40,133 nt of DNA, taken from positions 1-40,133 of the forward strand of contig CAZAXK010000004.1 of NCBI GenBank assembly GCA_964489135.1. Reading direction: 5' to 3'. Positions 1,333-38,298 of this stretch are shown here, in pieces; the first letter of the stretch is position 1; every line of letters starts with the position of its first letter. The notes beneath the pieces were generated by a model. That model was given only the letters and a program-made list of their open reading frames with translations. It did not search any database and was not told the origin of the DNA. Source of the stretch: an uncultured Candidatus Saccharibacteria bacterium. Its GTDB lineage: Bacteria > Patescibacteriota > Minisyncoccia > Phycocordibacterales > WO2-35-19. The position numbers were made by a program, and so were the translations under genes.

Positions 1333-2586
1333 TTATGCGATTGCGCCCGCTTCTACAAGCTTTACTTCGCCAGTTTTTCTGTCTTTTATTTCTACCTTGC
1401 CTTGGGCTACGGTCTTCTCACTGACTACAATCTGGAAGGGCATGCCGAGCAGGTCGGCATCAGCAAACTTCTCGCCCGCTCGTAAGTCGCGATCGTCATA
1501 GATCACATTCCCCTTGAGTTTTTCGTACAAAGACTCCGCAACTTTTTTGACTTCCTCATTTTGAGAAGGAATTTCAATCAAATGATATTTGAATGGTGCA
1601 ATCGCCTCCGGCCAGATGATACCTTTATCGTCGGATAATACCTCAACCACCGTGCCCATCAATCTCCCTAGACCAATACCATAACATCCCATGAAAATAG
1701 AATTTTTTTCTCCATTTTCATTAGTAAATGTCAGGTACGGATCAGAAAACTTCGTTCCTAAAGTAAAGATATTTCCAACCTCAACCGCTTTTTTTTCTTC
1801 AAACTCACCGCTCAAACCCAAATCTTTTTTAACTTCGTCAGTGTAAACCTCCTTATTGAGCGCGGCATGATTCGGTTCCATGTTTACCCCTTTTCCGTAA
1901 TCGTCTTTGTGAATGTAGATAACATCCTCACCACTTTCTGTTATGGTTTGAAATTCATGAGAAAACTTAGAAAATGAACCGCCTGATGCATAGGTAATAT
2001 AAGTTTTGTCTCCTATACCTACTCTATTGAAAATTCTTTTGTAGGCCTCCGCATACTTTGCATAAATTTGCTGATGGTCCTTCTCGTCTCGGCAAAAGCT
2101 GTACGCATCTTTCATAATAAATTCTCTGGTCCTCATGATCCCACTTTTTGATCGGATTTCATTTCTAAACTTATTCTGAAATTGATACACAGCAAAAGGC
2201 AGGCTCTTATATGAAGAAACGAATTGCTCCAGCATGTTTGAGATCGGTTCCTCGTGCGTAAATCCTAACCCCACTGCGTTTCCATCCTTGAGCTCAGACT
2301 TGAACCAGACATCTATTTTTTCATCATCCCATCTGTCAGTCCTCTGCCAAAGCTCCTTTCTTTGCAAAGTACTCATCAAGATTTCCTGACAATCAAGGCT
2401 GTTCATTTCTTCACGAATAATATTCTCGATATTCCTAAGAACCAAAAGTCCCAATGGCAAATAATCATAAACACCCGCCATTTCCTTATTTATGTATCCA
2501 GCACGAATCAACAGCTGAGCATTTTTGCTCGTCTCATCGGCAGGCGCCTCGCGCCTCGTCTTTGTAAAAAGTTTGGATTGTCTCAT
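1333..2586 (-). CDS. proS: Proline--tRNA ligase, short bacterial type without a full INS editing domain
   Basis: AGVYDYLPLG, FTHEE, YQFQNKFRNEIR, MRTREFIMKDAYSF, VEVGNIFTLGTKFS, MGCYGIGLGR, DDRDLRAGEKFADADLLG. Confidence 0.96.
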   Translation of the reverse strand: MRQSKLFTKTRREAPADETSKNAQLLIRAGYINKEMAGVYDYLPLGLLVLRNIENIIREEMNSLDCQEILMSTLQRKELWQRTDRWDDEKIDVWFKSELKDGNAVGLGFTHEEPISNMLEQFVSSYKSLPFAVYQFQNKFRNEIRSKSGIMRTREFIMKDAYSFCRDEKDHQQIYAKYAEAYKRIFNRVGIGDKTYITYASGGSFSKFSHEFQTITESGEDVIYIHKDDYGKGVNMEPNHAALNKEVYTDEVKKDLGLSGEFEEKKAVEVGNIFTLGTKFSDPYLTFTNENGEKNSIFMGCYGIGLGRLMGTVVEVLSDDKGIIWPEAIAPFKYHLIEIPSQNEEVKKVAESLYEKLKGNVIYDDRDLRAGEKFADADLLGMPFQIVVSEKTVAQGKVEIKDRKTGEVKLVEAGAIA

Positions 2587-2633
2587 GGGTTAAATCATAG
2601 CTCAAACAAATTTATTAGCAAAGTCATTTCCCC

Positions 2634-2667
2634 TCGGACAAATTTGACGGCCGTCATATTTGTCGCA
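2634..2667. repeat. Imperfect 34-bp palindrome, copy 1 (upstream of PaaX/Cas2-like gene)
   Basis: tcgGACAAATTTGACGG|CCGTCATATTTGTCgca; 28-bp core with one mismatch; matches the copy at 3215-3248. Confidence 0.9.
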
Positions 2668-2676
2668 ACAAATTTC

Positions 2677-2685
2677 TGATATAAT
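2677..2685 (+). promoter_or_regulatory. Extended -10 promoter element
   Basis: TG-a-TATAAT upstream of the PaaX-like gene; palindrome copy 1 covers the expected -35 position. Confidence 0.6.
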
Positions 2686-2716
2686 TGGAATATCTTTATA
2701 AGTGACAATTATCACT

Positions 2717-3214
2717 ATGAGTATTGTTATGGATATTTTGGAGCTAGCGTGGAATACAAAACTGAATTACAAGGGTATTCCAGTTAACCTATTTGGGGTT
2801 CCGAGGCTTCGAGCCGGCAAAAAGCCCTGCTCACAAACAACCTTTAACAGAACAGTACTAAGAATGAAGACAAAAGGATACTTGGAGATCATTGACGATA
2901 GATGGCAACTCACAGAATACGGTAAGAAATTCTATGAGAACCGCCAAAAATTGAGAACCAGATTTAGTTCCCCTTTTCCACCCAATGCGACAAAAAATCT
3001 TCTCGTCATATTCGACATTCCTGAAACTAAAAGAAACGAGAGAAATTGGTTACGGTGGCATCTAAAGAATTTTCAATACATTATGCTCCAACAAAGCGTT
3101 TGGCTAGGTCCGAGTCCACTACCAACCAAATTTCGAGAACACCTGAAGAATTTTAAGCTAGACAAATGTATAAAAACTTTCAAGCTCGCCAAGCCTTACC
3201 AATCCAAGGGTTAA
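2717..3214 (+). CDS. PaaX-like protein: N-terminal winged-helix plus Cas2/VapD-like ferredoxin-fold domain
   Basis: wHTH-like TFNRTVLRMKTKGYLEIIDDRWQLTEYGKK, then LLVIFDIPETKRNERNWLRWHLKNFQYIMLQQSVW (Cas2-like FDIP...QxSV). Alternative GTG start at 2702. Confidence 0.8.
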   Translation: MSIVMDILELAWNTKLNYKGIPVNLFGVPRLRAGKKPCSQTTFNRTVLRMKTKGYLEIIDDRWQLTEYGKKFYENRQKLRTRFSSPFPPNATKNLLVIFDIPETKRNERNWLRWHLKNFQYIMLQQSVWLGPSPLPTKFREHLKNFKLDKCIKTFKLAKPYQSKG

Positions 3215-3248
3215 TGCGACAAATCTGACGGCCGTCAGATTTGTCGCA
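3215..3248. repeat. Perfect 34-bp palindrome, copy 2 (begins at the first base after the stop codon)
   Basis: TGCGACAAATCTGACGG|CCGTCAGATTTGTCGCA, exact reverse-complement symmetry. Confidence 0.95.
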
Positions 3249-3267
3249 AAATGATCAACATAAAAAA

Positions 3268-4428
3268 TTAAAACAAATTTTTGATGTCTTTGAAGGTGAT
3301 GATGATCATGAGCCCAACGAGGACAGCGAAGCCGATGCCGTTTGCATAGGAGCCAAATTTGGCAGGAATCTTTTTGCGAGTAATCGCCTCGATCGCGACG
3401 AAGACCAGCCGGCCACCGTCGAGCGCTGGAAAAGGAAGAAGGTTAACAACGGCCAAGTTGATCGAGATAAGTGCGGTAAAGGTCAAAAGATAAGCAAGAC
3501 CAAGGCGCGATGCATCACCCACTAGGCCCACTATTCCGATCGGTCCGGTAACTTGTGAAAGATCGGCTGATCCGGTAAAGGCCCCTCCTATAAGCCCGAG
3601 TATCCCAGTAACTGTGAGATAGGTGAGCTTGAGGGTTACTCTCCCACCTTCGACAAAGGCCTGGTGTACAGGCAAAGACAGAGTACCTACCATATCCATA
3701 TTGATACCAACTATCTTCCTACCCTCCATAAGAGCAGCGTCTGGCAGAAGCGAAAAGTCGTGTTCTTTACCACCCCTATTAACTTGCATATTTATTTGCT
3801 GCGATGAGCCAGAAATAAAATCCGAAACGGCCTCTGGCTCGAGATCGCGCAGTACCGCACCCCCACTTTCAACCGAAAGTATTTTGTCACCAGACTTGAG
3901 CCCCGCATTACTTGCCGGAGAATTAGGCAAGACGGCGACTATGGTAAGAGCGGGATCCTTTACTTCATAACCATAATCATTTTGGACAGGAGTCGGAAGC
4001 CCAGAAACAAACCCGATCGAGAATAGAAGCCAGGCAAAAAGAAAATTGAAGAGCACTCCGGCAAAGAGAATCACCGCCTGCCAAATTTTGGAGACTTGTG
4101 TAAAGCTCCTACCAGTCGGAGAAAGTTCTGTGACAAAAGTCTGGTTGAGCCGCGAAGCAGGCGACCCGAGGACTTTTGGAGCAGGACCTTTTTCCGACTG
4201 AATTTCGGCGTCATAGTTCTCGCCAAAGATTTTGACGAAACCGCCAAAGGGAATCCAGTTTAACGAAAACTTAGTACCCCACTTTTCCCCCAGTGTTACG
4301 GCGCGGGGCGGATAGCCGAAACCAAACTCCTCTACCCTTACTCCAGCTTTCTTGGCAAAAATAAAATGCCCGAGTTCGTGTACCAGTACCAGAACACCGA
4401 GGATAACTATAAAAATTATGAGGGTCAT
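3268..4428 (-). CDS. rseP: Site-2 intramembrane zinc metalloprotease RseP (M50) with PDZ domain
   Basis: HELGH, NWIPFGGFV, AGVLFNF, PDZ (SPASNAGLKSGDKI), NLLPFPALDGG; TGATG overlap with frr. Confidence 0.95.
   Translation of the reverse strand: MTLIIFIVILGVLVLVHELGHFIFAKKAGVRVEEFGFGYPPRAVTLGEKWGTKFSLNWIPFGGFVKIFGENYDAEIQSEKGPAPKVLGSPASRLNQTFVTELSPTGRSFTQVSKIWQAVILFAGVLFNFLFAWLLFSIGFVSGLPTPVQNDYGYEVKDPALTIVAVLPNSPASNAGLKSGDKILSVESGGAVLRDLEPEAVSDFISGSSQQINMQVNRGGKEHDFSLLPDAALMEGRKIVGINMDMVGTLSLPVHQAFVEGGRVTLKLTYLTVTGILGLIGGAFTGSADLSQVTGPIGIVGLVGDASRLGLAYLLTFTALISINLAVVNLLPFPALDGGRLVFVAIEAITRKKIPAKFGSYANGIGFAVLVGLMIIITFKDIKNLF
4122..4191. repeat. Palindromic element inside the rseP coding sequence, frame preserved
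   Basis: caaaagtc (4134-4141) and gacttttg (4171-4178) are a perfect inverted repeat with imperfect outer and inner stems; encodes KGPAPKVLGSPASRLNQTFVTEL. Confidence 0.6.
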
Positions 4429-4976
4429 CAGCTTCTTATTTCGCTTATCTTTCTTTCGGCAATTTCGTCGAGCTTTTTGTTTGAATCATCAATGAGTTTT
4501 TGCAAATCTTCCTTTAGGCGGAACTTATCATCTTCGCCCATACCGCCCTTCTTTTCTCTTTCCTCAATCTCCTTGGATGTTTTGTCACGCACACCGCGCA
4601 AGGTTACTCGCGCTTCTTCGAGCTTCTGCTTCACAAGCTTTACCAATTGTTCGCGCCTTTCAGAAGTAAGCTCGGGGAAAATAACTCTTACTCCTTTTTC
4701 GAACGGAGCCACCGAGAGACCGAGGTTTGAATTAATCACTGCCTTCTCTATCGACTTACCCAAACTACTATCCCACGGCTCTACCCGAATGGACCGAGCG
4801 TCCTCGGTCAAAACGTTTGCCACCTCTCGCAAGTTCATTTTGGAACCGTAGGCCTCGACTTGGATAGAATCCAGAATAGCCGGTGTCGCTCTGCCGGTAC
4901 GCACAGAAGCAAGCTCGTTATGAAGCCATTCTTCTGTTTGTTTTATCTTCTGTTTTGAATCAGCAAAATCGAACAT
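4428..4976 (-). CDS. frr: Ribosome recycling factor
   Basis: VRTGRATPAILDSIQVEAYG, PELTSERREQLVK; start trimmed to MFDF. Confidence 0.96.
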   Translation of the reverse strand: MFDFADSKQKIKQTEEWLHNELASVRTGRATPAILDSIQVEAYGSKMNLREVANVLTEDARSIRVEPWDSSLGKSIEKAVINSNLGLSVAPFEKGVRVIFPELTSERREQLVKLVKQKLEEARVTLRGVRDKTSKEIEEREKKGGMGEDDKFRLKEDLQKLIDDSNKKLDEIAERKISEIRS

Positions 4977-4996
4977 GGGTTCATTATACACGAAAA

Positions 4997-5647
4997 TCAG
5001 ATCGAGGAGGCAAGCCACTCGAGAAGCATCTTTGGGGACGACCCACGGGCTGAAACCAAGCGCTTAGCAATAAGAACCTTCTTCAAAAGTCGATAGTTCC
5101 TAGGTACGGAAGCTTCTTCTGGCAAAGTCCAAATTGCCTCACGCAAGGAATCCTTGTCTTTTTCAGCCGATAATTTTTTTATAAAATTCATTTTTTCAGC
5201 AAGCGGCAATTTAAGAAAATTATTCTTTACAGTCGAGACAGTGTCGCCGATACCCTCATACACTCTCACCCGCGAAAGAACGGTGCCGAGTAACCCCCCT
5301 CCGCTCGGCAAAATTACAAAAAAGTAAGTACCAAGCGTCGGCTCTTCGAACACCTTTAGAAGTGCGTTCTGCGCCTCATGGGTGATGGAATCGGCAATTA
5401 TTATGGCAACTTTTCTCACACCCGCGATGGGCTTGTTGATTGCCCACCTCGAAAGTTCGCGGGCCTCATCTATGCCAAAGGTGTTACTATTCATTTCCAA
5501 AAAATCCGGATTGGCTTTCACTACAAAACCCGCCCGACCAAGAATTTCTTTCAACTCTTGAATCTCGCTTACCCCGCCCCAAACAAAATTGGCGTGGTGC
5601 AGTTTATCAAATCCACCGCTTTCCATTTTGAAATTTTGATTTGGCAT
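4997..5647 (-). CDS. DNA polymerase III delta'-like clamp-loader subunit (short form)
   Basis: FGIDEAREL, KVAIIIADSITHEAQNALLKVFEEP, TYFFVI, TVLSR. Confidence 0.8.
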   Translation of the reverse strand: MPNQNFKMESGGFDKLHHANFVWGGVSEIQELKEILGRAGFVVKANPDFLEMNSNTFGIDEARELSRWAINKPIAGVRKVAIIIADSITHEAQNALLKVFEEPTLGTYFFVILPSGGGLLGTVLSRVRVYEGIGDTVSTVKNNFLKLPLAEKMNFIKKLSAEKDKDSLREAIWTLPEEASVPRNYRLLKKVLIAKRLVSARGSSPKMLLEWLASSI

Positions 5648-29483: not shown

Positions 29484-29549
29484 TGTCCCGCCATAGCCTT
29501 TTTTGCGACGGCGGACATGTCCCGCCAAAGCTTTATGCGTAGGCGGACA
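29484..29549. repeat. Two tandem REP-like palindromes just 5' of tRNA-Leu
   Basis: tgtcccgcc...ggcggaca twice (29484-29517, 29518-29549). Confidence 0.75.
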
Positions 29550-29609
29550 TAGTGTGGATTATATGGTAAATTAGCTAAAAATCAAAGTACTTGGTAGAAA
29601 TTATAACCG

Positions 29610-30518
29610 ATGCAAAAACCTAAAATCATTGTAATACTAGGGCCGACATCTAGCGGTAAAAGCGACTTGGCGGTAAAGCTCGCTCAAAAGTTTAACGGGG
29701 AAGTAATATCCGCTGACTCTAGGCAAGTATACAAGGGTCTCAATATTGGCACGGGCAAGATCACCAAAAAGGAAATGAAGGGGGTGAAGCATCATCTGCT
29801 CGATATCGCGAACCCACGCAAAAAATTTACCGTTTCCGATTTTGTGAAAGCGACAAATTCGACGGTCGTCAAAATTGTCGCCAGAGGTAAAATACCTATT
29901 CTCTGCGGAGGTACTGCATTTTATATCGACGCTCTGCTCGGCGATAGGCAGATCCCCGAGGTTCCGATAAATGAAAAGTTGCGGGCAAAGCTTGAAAGGA
30001 AAAGTGTCGAGGAACTTTTCGCTATACTTTCTGACCTCGATCCAGAGAGAGCTAAAAGCATCGATAGGCAAAATCCTAGGCGATTGGTGCGAGCTATTGA
30101 AATATGCAAAGCACTAGGAAGTGTCCCAAAACAAATCGCAAGTTCACAATCAGACTTTCGAAACAAATTCGAAATTCTCAAAATCGGAACTAAAATCGAC
30201 GAGGCGGAATTAAGAAATCGGATTAACAAAAGATTAGAAAAGAGACTCAAACAAGGAATGATCGCCGAAGCCAAAGGGCTTCATGCGCGAGGACTCACCT
30301 ATAAACGGATGCGTGAGCTAGGACTAGAGTACGGGGCTCTGGCTGATCTGCTAGAAAACAAAATAACCAAAGAGGAGATGGTCGCAAGATTGCAGAAAGA
30401 GATCTGGCACTACGCCAAGCGCCAGATGACTTGGTGGAAAAAAGACCAAGAAATTCTCTGGATCAAACCATCCCCCACCATCGCTTCCCAAATAATTAAA
30501 GAGTTTTTGCGAAGCTAA
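29610..30518 (+). CDS. miaA: tRNA dimethylallyltransferase
   Basis: ILGPTSSGKS, ISADSRQVY, HHLLD, GGTAFY, RRLVRAIE, YAKRQMTW. Confidence 0.97.
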   Translation: MQKPKIIVILGPTSSGKSDLAVKLAQKFNGEVISADSRQVYKGLNIGTGKITKKEMKGVKHHLLDIANPRKKFTVSDFVKATNSTVVKIVARGKIPILCGGTAFYIDALLGDRQIPEVPINEKLRAKLERKSVEELFAILSDLDPERAKSIDRQNPRRLVRAIEICKALGSVPKQIASSQSDFRNKFEILKIGTKIDEAELRNRINKRLEKRLKQGMIAEAKGLHARGLTYKRMRELGLEYGALADLLENKITKEEMVARLQKEIWHYAKRQMTWWKKDQEILWIKPSPTIASQIIKEFLRS

Positions 30519-38262: not shown

Positions 38263-38264
38263 CA

Positions 38265-38294
38265 CGAAAAAAACTGCTTTGGCAGTTTTTTTCG
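38265..38294. terminator. Bidirectional terminator between tRNA-Tyr and clpB
   Basis: cgaaaaaaactgc-tttg-gcagtttttttcg, perfect 13-bp stem. Confidence 0.8.
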
Positions 38295-38298
38295 TTCT

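Follow-up and report, generated by a model that had tools for sequence, protein, structure and literature searches.

Why does a small gene carry nearly the same long palindrome on each of its sides, and how is its protein related to these repeats? The question is raised by a locus between proS and rseP on contig CAZAXK010000004.1 of an uncultured Candidatus Saccharibacteria bacterium (Patescibacteriota), of which we analysed 40,133 nucleotides; this whole stretch is called the window below. An original prediction, made from the letters alone, had described the locus as a self-contained cassette whose palindromes are the cognate sites of a protein with a winged helix-turn-helix and a Cas2-like fold, and had likened it to the genes of REP-associated tyrosine transposases (RAYTs), which are flanked by repetitive extragenic palindromic (REP) sequences. 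Comparison with homologs indicates that the palindromes are very probably cognate sites of the protein. We also consider it reasonably probable that the protein binds and regulates within a REP-like repeat family, in which one vertically inherited gene is accompanied by repeats of its own. The features on which the argument draws are the following.

2634..2667, no strand: upstream palindrome copy, imperfect; centred between 2650 and 2651, with its right arm in the −35 zone, and about 63 bp upstream of where proS transcription probably starts
2677..2685, plus strand: extended −10 element TGATATAAT; its hexamer starts 30 nt 3' of the palindrome centre
2717..3214, plus strand: gene for a 165-aa winged helix-turn-helix and Cas2-like (PaaX_M) protein; predicted recognition helix at about residues 40-53, invariant Asp D100 (FDIP)
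3215..3248, no strand: downstream palindrome copy, perfect over 34 bp; begins directly behind the stop codon; distance to the stop of the convergent rseP 19 bp
29850..29881, no strand: third palindrome copy, degenerate; GCGAC arms, in frame in miaA, where it reads ATNSTVVKIVA (residues ~81-91)
2594..2621, minus strand: proS promoter-like site TTGCTA-16-TATGAT; ends 8 nt before the proS ATG

The downstream palindrome, TGCGACAAATCTGACGGCCGTCAGATTTGTCGCA, is composed of the halves TGCGACAAATCTGACGG and CCGTCAGATTTGTCGCA and directly follows the TAA stop codon (3212-3214), exactly as had been predicted; it is the longest perfect zero-loop palindrome of the 40-kb window. The description of the two copies as twins needs some correction. 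The upstream copy is 94% identical to the downstream one over 32 nt and is imperfect, with one asymmetric pair in its inner 28 bp and with CG in place of the outer GC in its left arm. Folded as single-stranded DNA, the downstream copy has a predicted hairpin energy of −17.1 kcal/mol (z = −7.4) and the upstream copy one of −7.4 kcal/mol. Their 12-nt core, TGACGGCCGTCA, occurs in the window in the two flanking copies only, against an expected 0.05 occurrences. The gene starts at the ATG at 2717 (MSIVMDILE, as in homologs) and not at the GTG at 2702. We could confirm that the upstream copy covers the −35 zone of the promoter previously written as TGaTATAAT, since the position of the extended −10 element leaves this zone filled by the right arm of the palindrome. 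Equally, a terminator scan of the window called neither flanking copy and neither has a T-run (their flanks are AAAATG and TTAACC), in agreement with the view that they lack a U-tract and do not resemble terminators. Searching the palindromes against known RNA families in Rfam returned only spurious matches to miRNA hairpins, below threshold.

Homologs were expected to carry flanking palindromes if these are linked to the protein. We took 80 homolog loci from species-representative genomes, to which the flank analyses add the window, and a further 30 homolog loci bring the set to about 110 genes of Paceibacteria; matched palindromes were found on both sides at nearly all of them. When only strict palindromes (arms of at least 12) are counted at the 80 loci, the 130 nt on the upstream side of the gene hold 39 and the 130 nt on its downstream side 32, and the remaining ~620 kb of these loci contain 57, mostly loop-containing terminators. 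A symmetry scan recovered one shared 36-bp plan on both sides at nearly every locus, nnnnn-ACAAA-yTCTGC-N4-GCAGAr-TTTGT-nnnnn, with GACGGCCGTC or AACGATCGTT as the core in the clade of the window. Of the 80 homolog loci and the window taken together, 59 have clearly matched palindromes on both sides, and most of the others have weaker ones. The invariant part of the motif, ACA...C-N4-G...TGT, is kept across proteins that are only 45% identical.

The upstream copy is also placed regularly with respect to the promoter. Its centre typically lies 44-47 nt before the ATG at the homolog loci, and a −10 hexamer is found 27-34 nt from the centre on the gene side at 46 of 77 loci, compared with 8 of 77 on the far side and a background of 5%. 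In the majority of loci only 6-9 nt separate the end of this hexamer from the ATG; the leader is ~31 nt long in the window and in L001. The sequences suggest that the mRNAs of most family genes are leaderless, and that leaderless mRNAs, that of proS included, are common here. The downstream copy is placed more loosely, its centre being 12-55 nt past the stop codon, which itself falls inside the palindrome at several loci. A mirror symmetry of the cassette, looked for in the asymmetric centres (TATC/GATA, AGGT/ACCT), was rejected on the full count, which gave 21 direct, 20 inverted and 18 tied cases and no bias. Similarly, the two-operator DNA loop that had been suggested for the pair of sites gained no support: the centre-to-centre distance (median 557 bp) has no 10-11 bp periodicity and the sites show no helical phasing, although a loop could still form.

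Additional strong copies were seen one gene further out in L015 (2104-2139), L074 (2803-2838), L058 (5267-5302), L042 (5023-5058) and L051 (6145-6180), so that at some loci the palindromes enclose a neighbouring gene together with the family gene. A contig end in L024 (3972-4075) carries a perfect palindrome of 104 bp whose centre coincides with the downstream site and which takes in the final codons of the gene together with their mirror image; it represents either two convergent identical gene copies or an artefact of assembly or amplification.

The variable parts of the motif also link site and protein. The outer 5-7 nt and the centre differ among the paralogs of one genome and agree within the pair of copies that flanks a given gene. 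On average 30.2 of 36 positions are identical within such a pair; against the equivalent site in the nearest relative the figure is 26.5 (Wilcoxon p = 5e-7). Where this relative is less than 60% identical in protein sequence, the values are 29.8 for the pair and 17-19 for the relative, with 19.8 for random pairs. We then analysed the covariation of site and protein in 108 cassettes by mutual information with average product correction (APC), by which shared ancestry is only partly removed; plain mutual information was dominated by phylogeny and was discarded. Arm positions −18 to −14 pair best with Q40, T41, N44, R45 and L48, residues that line one side of the predicted recognition helix; positions −6 to −4 pair best with N110, L79 and R80, and the central positions with E103, N107 and Q126 of the Cas2-like domain. 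Part of the code of the arms can be read directly: TGAC goes with R/R/D in 12 of 12 cases, TGCT with K/R/D in 7 of 7, and CTAT with D/E, Y and S. The predicted covariation of palindrome and recognition helix is thus positive within the limit stated. Because matched copies stand on both sides of the gene, their paralog-specific arms co-vary with the helix and the distance from the upstream copy to the −10 element is fixed, these comparisons indicate that the palindromes are very probably the cognate sites of the protein, as had been proposed, with the upstream one probably serving as an autoregulatory operator.

What kind of protein would read these sites? It matches PaaX_M (PF20803) of Pfam with 51.5 bits over residues 101-163 (cut-off 24). 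CRISPR_Cas2 of Pfam scores 22.8 bits, below its cut-off of 23.8, and TIGR01573 (Cas2) scores 26.0 bits against a cut-off of 24.5 over 37 residues only (CRISPR: short palindromic repeats, clustered and regularly interspaced). No match to the N-terminal PaaX domain of Pfam was found, nor to PaaX_C at E <= 1, and the protein ends at residue 165. Throughout Pfam, NCBIfam, PADLOC and PHROGs only PaaX_M and Cas2-like matches were obtained, the latter weak in the defence and phage libraries, and no HUH Y1, transposase-type or recombinase domain. An AlphaFold model built with 24 homologs (mean predicted local distance difference test, pLDDT, 80.8) has a reduced winged helix, in the form of helix-hairpin-helix-wing at pLDDT 57-83, followed by a ferredoxin-like domain of beta-alpha-beta-beta-alpha-beta topology. 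The top Foldseek matches of the model are E. coli PaaX (8a39), Rv0674 and a series of Cas2 proteins, including entries for B. halodurans Cas2; the match to 8a39 extends over 128 columns of its 305 residues, and those to PaaX and Rv0674 cover the winged helix. The anticipated union of a winged helix with a Cas2-like fold is supported by these matches, and the protein is best explained, on the basis of profiles and model, as a 'mini-PaaX' that would consist of an N-terminal winged helix and a Cas2-fold dimerisation core and would lack the C-terminal domain of PaaX. The Asp of FDIP had been put forward as the metal ligand of Cas2 and VapD nucleases. It is indeed invariant across the strongly conserved family, but its conservation is not evidence for nuclease activity, because the motif, as D[IL]PE, is also present in one more distant PaaX-like paralog (L014).

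The family is large, with 481 word-sharing homologs and 1,304 clusters at E <= 1e-10 among 50% representatives. Each Paceibacteria genome holds several divergent paralogs, which are 45-65% identical to one another within a genome, and no homolog was found in the viral contigs of IMG/VR. The more distant PaaX-like paralog (173-181 aa, LLDLPE) lies convergently just downstream of the family gene in L014, L046, L017 and L035. In L046 this paralog (4543-5064, minus strand) has a palindrome of its own at 5099-5128, 35-64 nt upstream of its start, a case which raises the prospect that the habit of pairing a gene with a palindrome may reach into the wider mini-PaaX superfamily.

The original prediction had found no third copy of the palindrome in the window, and this proved wrong. 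Within miaA (29610-30518), the stretch at 29850-29881 agrees with the downstream copy in 27 of 32 positions, and the GCGAC arms specific to the window are among them; a match as good was found in 0 of 100 shuffles. On the family matrix its score is 27.9 bits, more than the median of true sites. Taken more widely, the copy lies at 29848-29883. It takes the place of an existing helix and leaves the length of the protein unchanged; many Zambryskibacteria-like MiaA proteins have TN.T.V.IV at this place, likewise at unchanged length. In another MiaA lineage a consensus palindrome lies ~100 residues further on, so that two lineages carry a copy at two positions.

Scanning metagenome contigs for the consensus palindrome without regard to genes gave at least 120 stretches, and the counts in this paragraph and the next refer to the matches listed. 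Among these, 26 exact sites lie upstream and 25 downstream of a family gene, 57 are without a family gene and 27 could not be judged as their flanks were too short; the 57 'orphan' sites, out of 108 judged, have at least 700 bp on each side without a family gene. About half of the copies in relatives are therefore far from any family gene, which, together with the third copy in the window, contradicts the idea of a self-contained cassette. The original prediction had named copies away from such genes as refuting it; those now observed do speak against self-containment, and they are at the same time the expected picture for a RAYT-like system. The parallel drawn with REP-flanked RAYT genes suits the architecture better than had been assumed, the palindrome being both at the gene and dispersed.

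The orphans comprise 27 intragenic and 30 intergenic sites. Of the intergenic ones listed, 24 separate co-directional, 5 convergent and 1 divergent genes. Most of them stand closer to the stop codon before them than to the start codon that follows, and in 10 of the 30 the palindrome is flanked by an A-run and, on its opposite side, by a T-run, compared with a background of 1%. No clear enrichment of −10 boxes at operator spacing was detected at these non-promoter copies, and a role of the orphans as promoter operators was rejected on this ground. The intragenic copies listed are always read in one frame, T-N-S-A-[MIPR]-A-E-F-V, and their hosts confirmed by Pfam are MiaA (the most frequent), a reverse transcriptase (RVT_1), phosphoglycerate kinase (PGK), arginyl-tRNA synthetase (ArgRS), TsaE, an AlkD-like protein of DNA-alkylation repair (DNA_alkylation) and a pseudouridine synthase of the RluA type (PseudoU_synth_2). 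Five separate contigs (L088, L127, L144, L186 and L193) have RVT_1 genes in which the in-frame palindrome stands just before LGNLTSQ, a motif that we take to suggest the type found in diversity-generating retroelements. In L101 the flanks of two sites (3077 and 11155) are reverse-complementary and the 14-kb contig is symmetric about its middle, which is probably a fold-back assembly artefact.

Orphan copies appear to come and go. Identical 36-mers are found at unrelated loci, and the identity ends at the ends of the palindrome. An AlkD-like gene in L173 exceeds its 76%-identical ortholog by exactly 12 aa, located at the palindrome; 3 Pgk genes have a copy and 13 do not; ArgS genes show 2 perfect copies and 2 decayed ones (TFSAMAENV, TSSVMAESV), and the rest have none. 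Simple insertion accounts for the AlkD-like case. It can be ruled out for the copy at residue 80 of MiaA and is doubtful for Pgk, where length is unchanged or nearly so. Strong extra sites number only ~1 per 100 kb, and there are roughly 1-2 orphan copies per cassette. The frame preference and the replacement-type copies led us to consider DNA uptake sequences as well, which was rejected, as the density falls short by ~100-fold and neither a signal peptide nor a membrane segment is present in the partner protein. In 4 of 6 cases an orphan has the same arms as the cassette located on its contig, which also holds for the window. Orthologous miaA copies have perfectly symmetric arms that differ between lineages. 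From these comparisons the palindrome is a low-copy dispersed repeat family of Paceibacteria that is gained, lost and decaying among close relatives, and the best explanation of its variants would be evolution in concert with the paralog-specific protein.

Two other repeats of the window are unrelated to this family or look ordinary. In the spacer between a ParB-like gene and miaA (29484-29550) there are two tandem 32-nt units, TGTCCCGCCAAAGCTTTATGCGAAGGCGGACA, which hold the inverted repeat GGCGGACA/TGTCCCGCC and whose sequence is unrelated to the cassette palindrome. The sole other long palindrome, at 38264-38295, is the hairpin ACGAAAAAAACTGC-TTTG-GCAGTTTTTTTCGT and looks like an ordinary bidirectional terminator.

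Has the unit itself moved? In the window its neighbours are proS (1333-2586, minus strand, divergent) and rseP (3268-4428, minus strand, convergent), and the order proS, gene, rseP is common to 8 genomes. Because this arrangement is kept while ProS is only ~60-65% identical, the gene has been inherited vertically at this place. Other paralog lineages occupy other conserved places, namely RNase H/recJ, tmk and tsaD/gdh. At 39 loci the gene runs antisense to both neighbours and at 15 it is co-directional with both (39 of 54 with co-directional flanks); here it is set into what is in relatives the co-directional array mreB-holB-frr-rseP-proS-mreB-mreC, and as the cassette interrupts the rseP-proS array, proS needs a promoter of its own. 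An empty junction in relatives, which had been foreseen, does exist. In L202, whose ProS is 77% identical to that of the window, rseP and proS are separated by a 38-bp spacer without a palindrome; in the closed Kaiserbacteria genome L203 a 407-bp gap contains an ordinary GC hairpin with a T-run. The junction is thus empty in L202 and L203/L204, and it is occupied in L205, L001 and others. With respect to unchanged flanking genes, the cassette has the reverse orientation in L051 (tmk group) and in L068 (recJ group), and in L075 it is shifted relative to a neighbouring gene when compared with L030. The unit therefore seems to have been inserted, lost or flipped over evolutionary time, and we see no evidence in these genomes that the gene is moving now. 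L001, the closest relative of the window by most flanking genes, has an extra 322-aa open reading frame and ~1.4 kb between proS and the cassette (2564-3989), and its ProS is 61% identical at an MreB identity of 94-97%, which hints at local replacement.

These observations are consistent with a simple scheme of binding and regulation within a REP-like family, to which we would give somewhat better than even chances. A dimer would be held on the dyad by the Cas2-like core, lying over the central ~12 bp, and each winged helix would read an outer half-site made up of the invariant ACA at 11-13 from the centre and the paralog-specific bases at 14-18. At the upstream copy the right half-site lies where sigma would read the −35 element, and occupancy should compete with sigma and shut the gene off, i.e. 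autorepression. The downstream copy would be a second cognate site, at which bound protein, the hairpin or both most likely end or block transcription from both sides. Such a block would shield rseP and proS from the antisense unit and the unit from read-through, insulating a gene that is antisense within the otherwise co-directional mreB-holB-frr-rseP-proS-mreB array. Intergenic copies elsewhere, with their frequent A-run and T-run flanks, resemble bidirectional terminators.

Several points weigh against this scheme. A palindrome centred ~41-44 bp upstream of the start site could serve activation instead of repression. With no T-run in the window, any terminator or insulator role here rests on a putative roadblock by hairpin or bound protein. 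The covariation is corrected for shared ancestry in part only, and the non-promoter copies lack the enrichment of −10 boxes. Simple insertion fails to explain the miaA residue-80 and Pgk copies, which barely alter protein length, and the number of orphans per cassette is far below that of classical REPs.

Among the alternatives, RAYT-like catalysis has the most to be said for it, and we still hold it to be unlikely. Here the Cas2-fold domain would be a metal-dependent nuclease that cuts or nicks the palindrome at its centre and thereby copies, converts or homogenises palindromes, the gene being their single-copy 'keeper'. The gene is flanked by its cognate repeat as RAYT genes are; identical 36-mers at unrelated loci, their presence or absence among orthologs, arms that evolve in concert within a genome and orthologous miaA copies that keep symmetric arms and yet differ between lineages would all be expected of such a process. 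The invariance of the FDIP Asp and the covariation of the central bases with residues of the Cas2 domain agree with it, and some Cas2 proteins cut double-stranded DNA, B. halodurans Cas2, one of the fold matches, being an example. On the other hand, the D[IL]PE motif is shared with the more distant PaaX-like paralog, PaaX is known as a repressor and is not known to be a nuclease, and the profile libraries reveal no transposase-type or recombinase domain in the protein. Copies are few, and several of them stand in place of existing sequence instead of being added to it, which no known transposition chemistry predicts. That this Cas2-fold family recognises its own 34-36 bp palindromes and also propagates or homogenises them, as a REPIN/RAYT-like intragenomic replicator (REPIN, a hairpin-forming REP doublet) on the chassis of a non-HUH, putative Cas2-like nuclease in CRISPR-poor Patescibacteria, is accordingly put forward only as a tentative idea with a minor chance of being right.

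A self-contained mobile or excisable cassette, in which palindrome, gene and palindrome move as a whole and solo palindromes are footprints, appears improbable. The empty and occupied rseP-proS junctions, the inverted and shifted cassettes and the antisense bias of the gene would suit it. Against this, the paralogs of a genome share only 45-65% identity, and recent gene copies are absent; synteny is conserved at the observed divergence of ProS; the empty junctions bear no solo palindrome as a scar; the viral contigs of IMG/VR hold no homologs; and no target duplications were seen beyond the palindromes themselves. The mobile unit of the original prediction is hence not evident in the present-day gene. 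Decidedly improbable, too, is a system of chromosome landmarks of the kind of parS/ParB, matS/MatP or Ter/RTP, whose sites would organise DNA or block replication or transcription, with the gene autoregulated by the sites adjoining it. Few sites per genome, the many that are intragenic or at 3' ends without promoter features, a gene that adjoins its sites and the miaA copy in two lineages at two positions, which hints at site retention, speak for landmarks, but several orthogonal paralogs per genome, the rapid gain, loss and decay of orphans and the clean 12-aa insertions fit selfish spread better. Lastly, ordinary intrinsic terminators or mRNA-stabilising hairpins without a specific link to a protein would explain the position of the downstream copy between convergent genes and the A-run and T-run flanks of a third of the intergenic copies listed from AT-rich relatives, yet they are highly improbable and already contradicted by a motif conserved across proteins 45% identical, an upstream copy in a divergent promoter at a fixed distance from the −10 element, arms that co-vary with the recognition helix, copies inside open reading frames and no T-run at either window copy.

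If the pairing of each protein with its own palindromes is true, it assigns a role to a large and still unstudied family of the Candidate Phyla Radiation (the 1,304 clusters above), which is now auto-annotated as 'Cas2' or 'PaaX', and it offers ready-made orthogonal pairs of protein and 36-bp site whose recognition code is readable. That even sub-megabase genomes tolerate the spread of a repeat into essential genes is indicated by the in-frame copies in MiaA, Pgk, ArgS and TsaE. Should the propagation idea hold, it would represent a new mechanism of short-repeat spread, including in-frame writing into essential genes, and possibly a window on how Cas2-fold proteins were first tied to palindromes of the size of CRISPR repeats.

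How does the mini-PaaX unit compare with known systems? A literature search found no link between PaaX or Cas2-like proteins and dispersed palindromes in Patescibacteria. PaaX is the repressor of phenylacetate catabolism and binds a palindromic operator. PaaX (8a39, PF20803) is the best match in both fold and sequence, with an N-terminal winged helix and then a Cas2-like middle domain; unlike PaaX, the protein here has no C-terminal effector domain (165 versus ~300 aa), no paa genes are nearby and its site is a dispersed repeat. With the Cas2 and VapD nucleases it shares the ferredoxin-like fold and the Asp motif on beta1, and its palindromic repeat of 34-36 bp has the size of a CRISPR repeat; here, however, the domain is fused to a winged helix and is a putative nuclease only. 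No cas1 adjoins the gene, whose neighbours are proS and rseP, and no CRISPR array is among the tandem and direct repeats of the window, nor does a partner gene for a VapX-type antitoxin adjoin it; it is a single-gene unit in the window and at 39 of the 80 loci, where it is often antisense to both neighbours. With neither cas1 nor an array, the protein is by its gene context not a CRISPR Cas2, and genes of this family should not be read as evidence of CRISPR systems in Patescibacteria.

Rickettsia palindromic elements (RPEs) were reportedly characterised by Ogata et al. in 2000 as in-frame 'selfish DNA in protein-coding genes'. The resemblance lies in palindromic repeats placed in frame in housekeeping genes of a small, reduced genome, tolerated in variable loops and variable among orthologs. 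RPEs differ in being ~100-150 bp long and without a known cognate protein gene, whereas the unit here is 36 bp (12 codons, TNSA.AEFV), 3-4 times shorter, and each variant pairs with a specific predicted DNA-binding protein. The palindrome has no Rfam family, and as the identity of the 34-36 bp unit ends at the ends of the palindrome, it falls short of the length of an RPE. A passage of PMC1779305 cites RPEs under the same description of selfish DNA in protein-coding genes.

The closest parallel is offered by REP/REPIN sequences and their RAYTs (Bertels & Rainey 2011, PMC3116915; bioRxiv 10.1101/2021.07.10.451892). Both systems have a gene that passes down vertically without duplicating and bears on its flanks copies of a short palindromic repeat, which occurs scattered elsewhere in the genome as well; in both, one genome can hold several orthogonal pairs of gene and repeat, and the repeats are often at the 3' ends of genes. 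They differ in that a RAYT is an HUH Y1 transposase of the IS200/IS605 type and the protein here combines a winged helix-turn-helix with a Cas2-like domain; REPs number in the hundreds, compared with the few copies of a perfect zero-loop palindrome of 34-36 bp, many of them intragenic, and the upstream copy here is integrated with the promoter of the gene. If the pairing is true, the plan of a gene with its private repeat, as known from REP and RAYT, would have arisen here on an unrelated fold.

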